Shown here: positions 13,331 to 23,141 of the stretch, one piece after another
How the letters are laid out: each line of letters starts with the position of its first letter
How positions within the stretch are numbered: the first letter of the stretch is position 1
Assembly (NCBI GenBank): GCA_964249195.1
Contig: CAXUAZ010000001.1
Location: forward strand, 1 to 63,316
From: an uncultured Chthoniobacterales bacterium
GTDB lineage: Bacteria > Verrucomicrobiota > Verrucomicrobiia > Chthoniobacterales > SZAS-18
Direction: 5' to 3'
Length of the DNA: 63,316 nt
Position numbers and translations under genes: made by a program
The notes under the pieces: model-generated
Told to the model about the DNA's origin: nothing
What the model saw: the letters and a program-made list of their open reading frames with translations, nothing else
The model's database searches: none

Positions 13331-15379
13331 ATGAACCACCTGTTCAACGTGCTGCTGGTTGTCATCGTGCTGATGAACGTCACCGGTGTGACCCTGCTTG
13401 CGCTCCCCTACTTGCGTCTGCCATACGGCCTCGCTCAGGCAGGGGCGGTGCTCGGGGGATGTCTCGTCTGCTTTTTCGTCGAACATTACGTCGGCTTGGG
13501 GCAAATGGGCTGGCTCTTGCCTGTTGGGGCGGTCGCCAGCGGTTGGTTGATCCGCGATCGGTGGGACGTATTTCGTGAAAACCTGGCTGCGACCGGCTGG
13601 CTGCTGGTCGGATTTTTCTACTGTCTGGCGTGGCGGTACTTATATCCAAATATCGATGCTTCGACCGAACGCATGGCGGATTTAAGTTTCGTGGCCGATT
13701 ACGCGCAAGGCGTCCGCCTGCCCCCGCCGGATCTGTGGTGCCCGCCGTACACGCTCAATCACTATTATAGTTTCCAGCATTATGCCGCCGGGCTGCTCGG
13801 CCGCTCGGCGGGCGTGAGCCCCGGGATAGCGTATCACCTGGCGTTTTGCCTCCTGAGCGGGCTGACGATGTCGGCGGCGTATGAGGGGGTGCGGCTTCTT
13901 TGCGCGCGGCGGTGGGCGCAGACGCTGGTGCTTGCGACCTTCCTCGTGGGGGGCACCGGCGCCAGCATCGTGACGCCTTTCATGCTCAAGGATTCGCGCC
14001 ATGAGGAGACGCCGTGGTGTTCGATGAGGTTTGTCGGAACGACGACTTCCAACAAGACCTTCCCGGATGAAAAACTCACCGCTTTCGGCAAATGGGTGCA
14101 GCAGCTTGCGCCGCCGACTAATAAGTTGAAACCGGTGGAAGAGCTGCCGATGGAGACGTTTAGCTACATCGTGGAGCTCGGCGATTATCATGCCCCGCTC
14201 GGGGGGGCTTTTCTGCTGGCTCTCTCGTTGGGGGCGGTCGCGCTGTTGTTGCACTCTGGCGGCGGTCCAGCCTGCGCGCTCCTGGGCGCCACTCTGCCGC
14301 TGACTCTTGCCACCAACGCGTGGACTCTTCCCTTCCAAACCATGCTGGCGCTTGGCGCCCTCGCGCACTTCCGGCTTGCGCGCGGGGTGTGGCCGCACTG
14401 GCGCGCGTTTCTCCTTGGCGCGGCGGGGGTGACCATCGCGTGCTTCCCTTTCTTTTCGTATTTCCTCCCGCTGACCGTCGGCAACCAGGCGCCTATGCGT
14501 TTTACCGGCGCGGATCTTCGCACGCCGTCGCCGTTTTTTGTGATCGTCTTCTGGCCCGTGCTGGTGGTCTGCCTGGCGCAGTTCTTCGCCGCGCGTCGGG
14601 AGGCGAAGTTGTTGCCGTTCTTTTGGTTGATGGCGCTGGCCGGGGCGGATCTCGTCTACATGGATGACATTTACGGACCGGGCGCGGAGCGGTTCAACAG
14701 CACGCTGAAATGGTGGCCCTGGGTGTTCAACGGCGCGCTGTTGTCCATCGCCGCGATCAACCTGAACTCCGCGCGGCGTTGGGTCCGCATCACCACGGCC
14801 GTGACGCTGCTCGTGGTGCTCAGTTTCACCGTTCGCCTCAGCTTTACGTGGACCGATGGTTTCAAGGCTTACCGCGATGCGCGCACCGCCGCGGTGTGGC
14901 AACCGACGAGCTTCGGCCAGTTGAGCGGCGACGCCTGGCTGCGCGGGAACACGCTCTACGGCAAGGACATGAACCGCGCCATGGGCTCCCTCCTTGACTA
15001 CCTGAAGGCGCAGCCGCGCGGGATCATGATCGAGAAACCGGACGAACGGGCGTTCGCGCAGGTGGGCGAGTTCAGCATCTTCAGCGGCCAGCCCACGCTC
15101 CTCGGGTGGGTGTCGCATGAGGAACTCTGGCGCAATAACCAGACCGATCTCGAGTCCCGCTACGCGCGCATTAACGACTTCTACGCCGGCACGCTGCCCG
15201 ACCCGCTGCGGTACCTCGACGCGCACAAAGTGCGCTTTGTGCTCTGGCTGCCGCGCAACAACAAGCCGCAGTCGCCAGACGCCTTCGAAAAGATGCAGAC
15301 CCGCCTCGCCAAGAATTATGATTGGAACGAATTTTACCGGGTAGGCAACGACATCGTCGGCGTGTGGGTTCGCCGTTAG
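13331..15379 (+). CDS. DUF2298 (Chlor_Arch_YYY-type)-like polytopic membrane protein
   Basis: 682 aa with many TM helices. The segment RYLYPNID...LPPPDLWCPPYTLNHYYSFQHY aligns by eye with RYLNPDLW...[20 protein letters not shown] of the 1441-aa protein at 18816..23141. The C-terminal soluble domains also align (GQPTLLGWVSHEELW vs [15 protein letters not shown]). Confidence 0.65.
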   Translation: MNHLFNVLLVVIVLMNVTGVTLLALPYLRLPYGLAQAGAVLGGCLVCFFVEHYVGLGQMGWLLPVGAVASGWLIRDRWDVFRENLAATGWLLVGFFYCLAWRYLYPNIDASTERMADLSFVADYAQGVRLPPPDLWCPPYTLNHYYSFQHYAAGLLGRSAGVSPGIAYHLAFCLLSGLTMSAAYEGVRLLCARRWAQTLVLATFLVGGTGASIVTPFMLKDSRHEETPWCSMRFVGTTTSNKTFPDEKLTAFGKWVQQLAPPTNKLKPVEELPMETFSYIVELGDYHAPLGGAFLLALSLGAVALLLHSGGGPACALLGATLPLTLATNAWTLPFQTMLALGALAHFRLARGVWPHWRAFLLGAAGVTIACFPFFSYFLPLTVGNQAPMRFTGADLRTPSPFFVIVFWPVLVVCLAQFFAARREAKLLPFFWLMALAGADLVYMDDIYGPGAERFNSTLKWWPWVFNGALLSIAAINLNSARRWVRITTAVTLLVVLSFTVRLSFTWTDGFKAYRDARTAAVWQPTSFGQLSGDAWLRGNTLYGKDMNRAMGSLLDYLKAQPRGIMIEKPDERAFAQVGEFSIFSGQPTLLGWVSHEELWRNNQTDLESRYARINDFYAGTLPDPLRYLDAHKVRFVLWLPRNNKPQSPDAFEKMQTRLAKNYDWNEFYRVGNDIVGVWVRR

Positions 15380-15385
15380 CCGCCC

Positions 15386-21800: not shown

Positions 21801-23141
21801 CAGCGGCAGGGCGTCATCCCAATGCTCCACGCCCAACTCCGCGCCAGGATGGATATGCCGGTAGATCCAGCGCGAAGCGAGGACGCGCGTGTGCTGCGGC
21901 CGATAAACGCCCAGGAAGGCGATGCCCCACGCGAGGGTCGCGATGGCCACTAAGGCCGCCGGCGTCCAGCGCCACCGGGAGTGGGGGAGGCCGTCCGCGA
22001 TCTGCACGAGCAGCGCCGCGCCGAAGATGATCAGCGGCGCGTAAATCGGGAGGAAATATCGCATCGTCATCTGCCATTGCGTTCCCTGGTGCAGGAACAG
22101 GAGGGCGATCCAGGCGAAGAGCGGCAACAACGCGATCTCCCGCGCGCGGACGAGCCGCCAGCCGGCCCACGCCGTGCCGGCCCAGGCGCAGAGCCCGAGC
22201 GGCACGCCCATGCCCCAGACGACCATGTTCTTCCAGGGATAAAGCAACGGGGTGCGGCCCACCCATTGCCGGGTAAAAGGAACGTCGATCGTTCCCATGC
22301 TCACGCCGACGACGTACCGCATGTTCGTCATCCATCGCGGGGCAAACGCACCCAAACCACTGAATGCATCCGGCTCGACCAGCCGGAAGACCGCGGCCAT
22401 CGCGAGCGCAAAGGCGGCCCAACGCGCAAAGACTTGCAGCGGAGAGGCCAGTTTCCATCCGCGCACGCCCGGCGCCGCGAACAGGGCAGTCAACGCGACC
22501 GGCGCCGCCAGTTCCGCGACCGAGATTTTGCACGCCACGCCGAGCCCCAGGGCGGCGCCGACCCCGGCATATTCCCACGCGCGGCCGCGCCATTGGGCGC
22601 CTTGCAGGAGCCAAAGCGCGAGCGCCACGAAGAAGTTGGCGTAGGGATCCACCACGAAGAAGTGCGCGTGCTGGATGGGCGACACGCAGCCGGCGTAAAG
22701 CAAGGCCGCGAGCAGCCCGCAACGTTCATCCGGGTCTCGGCCCCGGAGCCGGCGGGCGATCAGGTAAACGAGCCAGACGACCGCGCCATCGATCAGCGCG
22801 CTCATCCCGCGGCCCACCAGCGTCTGCTGTTCAAACCGTTTTACGCCGGCAAACGTGCAGACGGCGGTCAGGCCCGTGGTGGGCAGCGTGCCGTACGCAA
22901 AATAGGAAGTCTCGCGGTTGCGGGGATTGAGCGGGGAATGGGCCTCGTCGAGGAATTCACCGAGCGACTTTGGCCACGACAGCTTGTTCGCGGCCATGAG
23001 CACGTTGCGCTCGTCGGGATGGCTAGACGTGCCTTGATCCCAATCGATCGCGTAGAAACGCAGGACGCCGGCGAGCAAGAGAATGAGCCAAATCCAGCGG
23101 GAAAAGCGCCGTCGGGCAGGGGCGGGAGGCGGCGGGATCAT
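18816..23141 (-). CDS. giant polytopic membrane protein: PMT_2/ArnT-like GT-C glycosyltransferase module fused to a DUF2298 (YYY) module
   Basis: 1441 aa. The N-terminus ([34 protein letters not shown]) is typical of GT39/GT83-like GT-C enzymes. The central part has [37 protein letters not shown] (YYY signature). Its stop is 6 nt from the convergent dprE2-like stop. Confidence 0.7.
   Translation of the reverse strand: [1441 protein letters not shown]

Follow-up and report, generated by a model that had tools for sequence, protein, structure and literature searches.

In Kelly et al. 2024 (PMC11127046), extracytoplasmic pentofuranosylation is presented as a process that relies on a HAD-PRP::PPPRS fusion, a lipid-linked pentofuranose and a periplasmic glycosyltransferase of the C fold (GT-C) belonging to GT136. 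DprE1/DprE2 homologues were found wherever the glycan carries arabinofuranose (Araf), and further candidate systems were mentioned in organisms with unknown glycans (PMC11127046). In P. (para)aeruginosa Pa5196/PA7, the GT-C TfpW puts D-Araf on pilin, and homologues of decaprenyl-phosphate phosphoribosyltransferase (DPPRS), DprE1 and DprE2 are encoded in PsPA7_6246-6249. Here we describe a cluster of five genes, g1 to g5, in a 63,316-nucleotide (nt) stretch of contig CAXUAZ010000001.1 from an uncultured Chthoniobacterales bacterium; this whole stretch is referred to as the window. The cluster encodes a HAD::UbiA fusion, a DprE1-like oxidase, a DprE2-like reductase and two proteins with DUF2298 (Chlor_Arch_YYY) modules. 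With slightly better than even confidence, we read it as an extracytoplasmic pentofuranosylation system in which g1 is most likely the Araf transferase and g5 probably acts on the same glycan. The original prediction for this DNA suggested an uncharacterised envelope D-arabinosylation (or related pentofuranosylation) system, a description that has to be withdrawn because this kind of system was already described in 2024 (PMC11127046). The main text and supplement of that study contain no mention of DUF2298 (PMC11127046), and what is new here is the DUF2298 partner together with the absence of a flippase gene.

All five open reading frames (ORFs; Table 1) were found where the original prediction had placed them, including the 6-nt spacing between g1 and g2, the two ATGA overlaps and the 6 nt (18810-18815) that separate the stop codons of the convergent genes g4 and g5. 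The g2/g3 overlap at 16819-16822 was read directly (ACATGAATG at 16817-16825), and the g3/g4 overlap at 18093-18096 was deduced from the coordinates. The g1 gene is translationally coupled to g2. The peptides used to recognise the enzymes were located as CVNDLFDMPADRLDPRKSRRPLAAGE in g2 and as GRGRSYGDVCLNNGG and GGAVANDVHGKEH in g3. Pfam searches assigned DUF2298 to g1, UbiA and a weak HAD match to g2, FAD_binding_4 to g3, adh_short to g4, and both PMT_2 and DUF2298 to g5.

The donor-synthesis assignment of g2, g3 and g4 was borne out, with DPPRS, DprE1 and DprE2, respectively, as the top matches among solved structures in the PDB. The g2 protein consists of a HAD phosphoribose-phosphatase domain (residues ~1-170) and a UbiA polyprenyl-phosphate 5-phosphoribosyltransferase (PPPRS) domain (~185-478). 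In Pfam, UbiA scored 60.5 bits and HAD 22.3 bits, the latter under its cut-off of 27; the NCBIfam HAD-UbiA fusion family NF006088 matched over the full length with 493 bits (cut-off 351), and the NCBIfam DPPRS models matched as well, all under cut-off. The UbiA half matched the M. tuberculosis DPPRS structure 8j8j with an E of 9e-23. Across 27 homologues with 40-73% identity, the HAD nucleophile motif VDLDGTL (residues 6-12) showed invariant D7, D9, G10 and T11, and the UbiA loop NDLFDMPAD showed invariant N237, D238, D241 and D245; R356 and E359 of the R356-x-x-E359 pair were invariant as well. The spacing of these motifs equals that in Citrobacter youngae ORF15, where D18, N247/D248/D251/D255 and R366/E369 were dissected by mutagenesis (PMC11127046).

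The g3 protein matched Mtb DprE1 with an E of 3e-65 over residues 8-422, the next family among PDB sequences reaching only 1e-8. It keeps the catalytic Lys418 (YPAKDAR) and has Ala in place of the benzothiazinone-target Cys387. For g4, which carries the motifs GATSAIA and YGSAK, the top match was DprE2 from the DprE1-DprE2 complex (21gq_C, E 9.4e-21), with the next short-chain dehydrogenase/reductase at 1e-12. Both proteins align end to end with DprE1 and DprE2, and the DprE models are their top specific matches. Against the NCBIfam equivalog models NF053785/NF053786, which cover DprE1/DprE2, g3 reached 314 bits (cut-off 500) and g4 149 bits (cut-off 250), and g4 scored 205 bits against PRK07102 (cut-off 267). 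As these values lie under the actinobacterial equivalog cut-offs, the proteins are named DprE1-like and DprE2-like and not orthologues.

Genes in the order g2-g3-g4 form a widespread cassette. Among 80 sampled metagenome loci with a HAD-UbiA gene (L096-L175, 36-43% identity to g2), a DprE1 homologue was located directly downstream in 37, and a DprE2 homologue was also present in about 28. The same three genes occur in identical order in Corallococcus. Other recurrent neighbours of HAD-UbiA in this sample were a NAD-dependent epimerase of ~328 amino acids (aa; 15 loci) and an amine-oxidase-like flavoprotein of ~439 aa (10 loci); two acidobacterial DUF2298 clusters, L026 and L027, encode the flavoprotein as well. 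These proteins may represent alternative epimerisation/oxidation modules for other pentofuranoses.

The g1 protein scored 76.6 bits against Pfam DUF2298 (cut-off 27.8) and 106.8 bits against TIGR03662, under the cut-off of 300.25, and carries HYYSFQHY where canonical DUF2298 proteins have the YYYxG motif. By these sequence features, g1 is classed as a divergent DUF2298 member, in a subfamily whose 56 aligned members are all about 660-700 aa long. The cluster had been described as containing two giant DUF2298 proteins; the domain was identified in both, and the size does not fit g1. Searches of the g1 and g5 sequences against all PDB chains gave nothing useful, and fold comparison was therefore used. 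The AlphaFold2 model of g1 (pLDDT 93.4, pTM 0.94) was compared with the PDB by Foldseek, and the top 17 matches were all GT-C enzymes (DPY19, eukaryotic STT3, archaeal AglB and bacterial PglB; probability 0.9-1.0), in agreement with the GT-C fold proposed for DUF2298. The C-mannosyltransferase DPY19 was matched with an E of 6e-6; EmbB and EmbC appeared as weak matches (E 0.2-0.9), and non-GT-C transporters stayed below a probability of 0.1.

From the model helices and the positive-inside rule, about 14 transmembrane (TM) helices are predicted in g1, with the Arg/Lys-rich loops in the cytoplasm. In the 56-member alignment, R102, D134, E275, D285, H287, R454 and N456 are invariant and D109 and E113 nearly so, and D446 is also among the conserved residues of predicted periplasmic loops. 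D109, E113 and D134 lie in the loop after TM4, periplasmic by the positive-inside rule. E275, D285, H287, D446, R454 and N456 are likewise predicted in periplasmic loops, and a C-terminal soluble domain (~520-682) is predicted to be periplasmic, as in oligosaccharyltransferases. Neither a WWDxG nor a DxD catalytic signature could be recognised in g1, and Pfam returned no TPR match for it.

The g5 protein is a tandem of a PMT_2/GT39-like and a DUF2298 module, so that the cluster, together with g1, encodes three GT-C modules. The PMT_2 match covers residues 105-248 (E 1.9e-8, Pfam), and several g5 homologues carry the source annotation "glycosyltransferase family 39 protein". In an alignment of 30 homologues, W34, D35, P42, D43, E44 and R45 (HPDER motif) were invariant in the N-terminal half, and the invariant residues of the C-terminal half included N748, P749, D750, E759, K760, Y790-792, D940, H942, D1200, R1203 and N1205. 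The latter half matched DUF2298 (PF10060) at residues 676-1218 with 347.9 bits and TIGR03662 with 511.8 bits (cut-off 300.25), and it carries NYYYFG. Profile-profile alignment by hhalign matched the g1 family to this half over the whole g1 length (probability 99.7%, E 5e-26), from which g1 and the g5 DUF2298 module share a fold. Regarding the proposal that the DUF2298 paralogs are the users of the pentose donor, the GT-C fold was recovered, and the PMT_2 module of g5 emerged as a third GT-C candidate that had been left unweighed. Relatives of the PMT_2::DUF2298 fusion number more than 1300 and are spread over Verrucomicrobiota, Chloroflexota, Acidobacteriota, Eremiobacterota and Sumerlaeota; some reach 2300-2500 aa.

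The linkage between DUF2298 and donor genes was surveyed with a g1-family profile in one genome per GTDB species, which gave 174 confirmed relatives. The best 80 loci, with 10-kb flanks, were searched with the window proteins by tblastn, and a feature was counted when it lay within 10 kb of the g1-type gene. The expected association of dprE1/dprE2 with DUF2298 across genomes proved real and at the same time confined to certain clades, with a UbiA gene in 9/80 loci and DprE1 plus DprE2 in 1/80. A HAD-UbiA gene directly follows g1 on the same strand, 30-70 nt away, in L012, L013, L017, L022 and the metagenomic locus L008, and in all five the 10-kb flanks lack PMT_2 and g5-type genes. In L019 and its metagenomic twin L010, the order is HAD-UbiA, DprE1, DprE2, PMT_2::DUF2298, an unknown 530-aa protein and g1. 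The acidobacterial loci (Bryobacteraceae/Solibacter) encode a UbiA of the same subfamily that lacks HAD (278 bits against NF006088 across the UbiA region) and which in L027 adjoins a PAP2 phosphatase, as Rv3806c adjoins Rv3807c. These clusters also hold genes for a NAD-dependent epimerase/dehydratase, a methyltransferase, GT4 and GT2 enzymes, and g5-type and g1-type proteins. In a neighbour-joining tree of g1 homologues, the UbiA-linked proteins fell into two separate clades. As the g1-UbiA association recurs with changed gene order and accessory enzymes, inherited synteny alone is hard to credit.

Genes of the g1 and g5 types neighbour each other in the window, as they do in L010/L019 and L026-L029. 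On contig_74405 of ERZ26871208 (L008 and L011), the g5 orthologue is located about 20 kb from the g1 and UbiA pair, beyond the ATP synthase operon. This contig is rearranged, keeping genes for an M20 peptidase, NlpC/P60, DUF5069 and CysNC and the ATP synthase operon, with no DprE1/E2 in view. Relatives that have g1 and UbiA with no DprE nearby may use the ribofuranose lipid directly. No literature tying DprE1 or Araf to Verrucomicrobia was found.

Outside Verrucomicrobiota, g5-type clusters were identified on two long metagenomic contigs (L092, 10001-21553; L093, 3054-24206). Their conserved content comprises PMT_2, PMT::DUF2298, PMT_2::NHL, a smaller DUF2298 protein, a small GT2, a GT4, a methyltransferase and an unknown protein of ~500 aa; they contain no UbiA or DprE gene and have no known product. 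The top NCBIfam matches of the small GT2 were ArnC, PpgS and dolichyl-phosphate hexose transferase, all well under cut-offs. ArnC/PpgS-like GT2 genes were also found near g1-type genes in 11/80 loci, being phylogenetically the most scattered neighbour. That DUF2298 is an arabinose-specific family was ruled out by the clade-restricted UbiA/DprE linkage and by these GT2-linked relatives. Because a lipid-phosphate-sugar synthase recurrently adjoins it, DUF2298 looks like a GT-C family that acts on polyprenyl-phosphate monosaccharides, with the donor module swapped by lineage; in the lineage of the window, the donor is probably polyprenyl-P-D-Araf.

Table 1. Genes and modules of the cluster (from the ORF listing and translations; positions in the window), donor genes in 80 g1-family loci, and prepilin-like operon genes in related loci (positions in each locus).
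Feature	Position or frequency	Strand	Description
g1	13331-15379	+	682 aa; stand-alone DUF2298 module
g2	15386-16822	+	478 aa, GTG start; HAD::UbiA fusion
g3	16819-18096	+	425 aa; DprE1-like FAD-dependent polyprenyl-phosphoribose 2'-oxidase
g4	18093-18809	+	238 aa; DprE2-like short-chain reductase
g5	18816-23141	-	1441 aa; PMT_2 module and DUF2298 module
g5 N-terminal half, residues 1-624	21270-23141	-	PMT_2/GT39-like GT-C module
g5 C-terminal half, residues 625-1441	18816-21269	-	canonical DUF2298/Chlor_Arch_YYY module, paralog of g1
PPPRS-type UbiA gene	9/80 g1-family loci		Verrucomicrobiota L012, L013, L014, L017, L019, L022; Acidobacteriota L026-L028
DprE1 and DprE2	1/80 g1-family loci		L019, Methylacidiphilales metagenome-assembled genome (MAG)
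no UbiA, DprE or g5-type gene	about 67/80 g1-family loci		Opitutaceae, many Gammaproteobacteria, others
prepilin-like operon genes	L008 9108-9590; L013 7533-8042, 5262-7508; L017 9121-9759	-	G-F-T/S-L-V-E-M motif
prepilin-like operon genes	L022 ~9068-9637; L049 ~9473-9643; L176 5859-6482	-	G-F-T/S-L-V-E-M motif

In the proposed pathway, g2 would move ribose-5-phosphate from phosphoribosyl pyrophosphate (PRPP) onto polyprenyl phosphate, presumably undecaprenyl phosphate, at the cytoplasmic face, and its HAD domain would strip the 5-phosphate to leave polyprenyl-P-ribofuranose. The FAD oxidase g3 and the NAD(P)H reductase g4 would invert C2, giving polyprenyl-P-D-arabinofuranose. Once this lipid is translocated to the periplasmic face, a periplasm-facing GT-C would pass Araf to an envelope acceptor. 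The likeliest transferase is g1, favoured as the donor-coupled enzyme because it stays beside UbiA where g5 lies elsewhere. The tandem PMT_2 and DUF2298 enzyme g5 probably acts on the glycan of g1, since genes of these two types are neighbours both in the window and in the related loci named above. A broader proposal is put forward tentatively, as possible rather than probable: DUF2298/YYY would be a new GT-C (would-be CAZy) family that acts on polyprenyl-phosphate monosaccharides, and g1 and g5 would be, in this Verrucomicrobiota lineage, an Emb/TfpW-like D-Araf transferase/polymerase set that works without a dedicated flippase and attaches an Araf glycan either to pilin-like proteins or to some envelope component.

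Several findings weigh against the pentofuranosylation reading. Flippase genes (GtrA, SMR, MATE-like small polytopic ORFs) were found neither in the window nor in seven related loci. The TM-scores of g1 to solved GT-Cs were just 0.3-0.39, with 8-12% sequence identity; as these global scores are modest, g1 is regarded as a divergent GT-C outside the solved families. In about 67/80 g1-family loci, UbiA, DprE and g5-type genes are all missing from the 10-kb flanks, DprE1/E2 occur together with DUF2298 in just the lineage of the window and L010/L019, and from the opposite side no g1-type or g5-type gene was present in the HAD-UbiA sample (0/80). The scores of g3 and g4 lie under the DprE1/DprE2 equivalog cut-offs and those of g2 under the cut-offs of the actinobacterial DPPRS models. 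No functional study was found in the literature on DUF2298, TIGR03662, COG5427 or PF10060.

ArnT is a PMT_2-type enzyme, and the arabinofuranosyltransferase could be sought in the PMT_2/ArnT-like N-terminal module of g5, the DUF2298 modules then serving in hexose addition, polymer handling or acceptor binding. We consider this assignment unlikely. It would agree with the immediate proximity of g5 to g4 (just 6 nt), with the invariance of the HPDER motif, with the few PMT_2-like GT-C genes that adjoin HAD-UbiA in the metagenome sample, and with GT136 ORF12, the sole experimentally proven partner in such systems, which is nearest to ArnT by sequence (PMC11127046). However, the five Verrucomicrobiota loci L008, L012, L013, L017 and L022 have HAD-UbiA beside g1 and neither PMT_2 nor a g5-type gene within 10 kb, and on the ERZ26871208 contig g5 lies about 20 kb from the g1 and UbiA pair. 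The adjacency might also be local synteny, with DUF2298 using a hexose donor from a GT2 encoded elsewhere and the Araf lipid serving an unlinked GT-C. The 6-nt gap between g1 and g2, the close same-strand g1-UbiA pairs in five further species, and an association that spans two phyla with altered order and accessory swaps (HAD vs PAP2, DprE1/E2 vs NAD-epimerase) all speak for a functional tie, and no GT2 gene was found among the annotated ORFs of the window; we therefore see local synteny as an improbable account, even with the scattered ArnC/PpgS-like GT2 (11/80), its presence in g5-type clusters that have no UbiA, the 0/80 count for DUF2298 in HAD-UbiA loci, and the many HAD-UbiA cassettes, most of those sampled, that have no adjacent GT-C.

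Another rival reading concerns the identity of the sugar. The g2-g4 enzymes might make a lipid-linked pentose other than D-Araf, such as a 2-keto intermediate or another epimer, or involve a different carrier/acceptor chemistry. The sub-threshold scores of g3 and g4 (314 vs 500 and 149 vs 250 bits) leave room for this, as do the related systems that reach xylofuranose via other epimerases (PMC11127046) and the closest g1 and UbiA relatives without DprE1/E2 nearby, where ribofuranose use is possible. Still, both alignments run end to end with catalytic residues kept, no rival family comes close, and DprE1/E2 homologues track Araf in the surveyed glycans (PMC11127046), so that a different pentose appears quite improbable. 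It is very unlikely, finally, that the DUF2298 proteins are no glycosyltransferases at all and serve as lipid-linked sugar translocases, scaffolds or polymer exporters built on a GT-C-like helical bundle. Such a role would account for the lack of a flippase gene in every DUF2298 and UbiA locus examined and for the low global TM-scores of g1, and for TfpW, itself a GT-C, a function as translocase has been the subject of speculation. Nevertheless, all confident fold matches of g1 are catalytic GT-Cs, with transporters below 0.1; invariant acidic and basic residues are predicted to occupy periplasmic loops, an arrangement shared with GT-C active sites, and the predicted periplasmic C-terminal domain is laid out like that of oligosaccharyltransferases.

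A lead to the acceptor comes from 11 loci of Chthoniobacterales-like and Opitutaceae genomes, in which a divergent operon lies directly upstream of the g1 orthologue: L008, L009 (on one contig with L014), L012, L013, L016, L017, L018, L022, L047, L049 and L176, the last on a contig that ends directly after g1. Encoded in this operon are a prepilin-like protein of 170-210 aa, which has a class III signal of the form G-F-T/S-L-V-E-M (N_methyl 26.5 bits, cut-off 21.2), and, after it, larger proteins measuring about 750 and 744-821 aa. The head-to-head arrangement of the prepilin-like gene and the g1 orthologue resembles pilA-tfpW of P. aeruginosa group IV strains and, by analogy with TfpW, weakly suggests pilin-like proteins as acceptors. 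Verrucomicrobiota encode many prepilin-like proteins, which is why the lead is a weak one. Within the 63-kb window, no prepilin motif and no tblastn match to the pilin-like proteins was detected.

The cluster is preceded by an F1Fo ATP synthase operon (6230-13045) and followed on its 3' side by genes for a rhomboid-like protein, the sole other polytopic ORF near the cluster, a class II tRNA synthetase, a Pst-like phosphate ABC system and a TonB-dependent receptor. As a TonB-dependent receptor is encoded, the host is a diderm; the nearest genomic relatives of g1 are Verrucomicrobiota MAGs with 47-52% identity, and the original view of a non-actinobacterial diderm host was upheld on both counts. 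Its statement that no Emb/Aft-type arabinosyltransferase is present also stood, as neither an Emb/Aft-type gene nor a further glycosyltransferase, GT2 included, was identified by Pfam among the annotated ORFs of the window. Likewise, no PAP2 phosphatase of the Rv3807c type and no GtrA-like gene of the Rv3789 type was present among the Pfam-annotated window ORFs. A promoter/terminator scan of 12600-24300 was uninformative.

Other features of the window were also recorded. The Pst-like phosphate ABC operon (27441-32421, minus strand) encodes a 707-aa periplasmic binding protein in which PBP_like_2 is matched at residues 387-676 only, with an N-terminal extension of about 380 aa. At 33402-35161 (minus strand), about 10 kb from the cluster, a gene for a NodS-like S-adenosylmethionine-dependent methyltransferase overlaps an acyl-CoA-dehydrogenase-like gene; no link between this pair and the pentose system was found. 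The region 39000-49000 has a lower GC content (0.576-0.60), a strongly negative AT skew at 40-42 kb, a phage-type integrase at 47834-48889 (minus strand) and ORFs without a Pfam match at 39689-41587, 41594-42289, 44544-45944 and 45941-46948, and is probably an integrated mobile element. A 1965-aa protein encoded at 49599-55496 (minus strand) has a DUF2126 putative amidoligase match confined to residues ~1493-1920; it has the appearance of an exceptionally long fusion in which about 1500 residues lack annotation.

DUF2298 is a large family, the g1 profile recovering 3806 clusters at 50% identity, and this locus offers a first testable hypothesis for its function. The hypothesis rests on the GT-C fold, on a defined lipid-linked donor for which PRPP can serve as the in vitro starting material, and on candidate catalytic residues. 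If it is true, a new glycosyltransferase family would join the pentofuranosylation toolkit, D-arabinofuranose glycans would reach Verrucomicrobiota and Acidobacteriota, and the multi-GT-C clusters of several poorly studied phyla would be accounted for. Nothing known is overturned, because the pathway logic was published in 2024.

Among described systems, ORF15-ORF14-ORF12 of C. youngae O1/O2 (PMC11127046) share with the window a HAD::UbiA-type PPPRS with the same catalytic motif spacing. Systems of this type likewise combine a polyprenyl-P-pentofuranose donor, a periplasmic GT-C and auxiliary epimerases that set the sugar, DprE1/E2 leading to Araf. They differ in that the window has DUF2298 and PMT_2 enzymes in place of GT136, three GT-C modules instead of one, no MATE or other flippase gene, and a host from Verrucomicrobiota rather than Enterobacterales. 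As Pfam assigns its GT-Cs to DUF2298 and PMT_2, their membership of GT136 is unlikely. In the mycobacterial decaprenyl-P-arabinose pathway (Rv3806c, Rv3807c, DprE1, DprE2 and Rv3789, with Emb/Aft), homologous enzymes catalyse the same three reactions, and GT-C enzymes consume the lipid-linked Araf outside the cytoplasm. For donor synthesis, the cluster would work like this pathway. In contrast to mycobacteria, its phosphatase is a fused HAD and not the PAP2 protein Rv3807c, it has no GtrA-like Rv3789 and no Emb/AftA-D, and its carrier is probably undecaprenyl rather than decaprenyl phosphate. Since Emb/Aft, PAP2 and GtrA-like genes are missing and g2-g4 lie under the equivalog cut-offs, the cluster is not of the mycobacterial type by membership.

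The TfpW system resembles the window in its Gram-negative setting, in the DPPRS, DprE1 and DprE2 homologues that feed one polytopic GT-C, and in that no dedicated flippase has been identified; TfpW itself is a different GT-C, which carries a DDX motif and, at its C-terminus, a TPR domain, and which requires, or at least profits from, the GtrA-like protein 6247. In GtrA/GtrB/Gtr(type) and ArnC/ArnT-style systems, the same two-step logic operates with a hexose-type donor, and many DUF2298 loci outside this lineage pair with an ArnC/PpgS-like GT2 in this manner. The window, by comparison, has a PRPP-dependent UbiA/DprE cassette as its donor module, and no GT2 or GtrA-like gene. Finally, STT3/AglB/PglB and DPY19 (GT-C fold class A) are the top full-length fold matches of g1 and share its layout, in which the membrane domain precedes an extracytoplasmic domain at the C-terminus, whereas the donor of g1 would be a monosaccharide-phosphate lipid and not a pyrophosphate-linked oligosaccharide.

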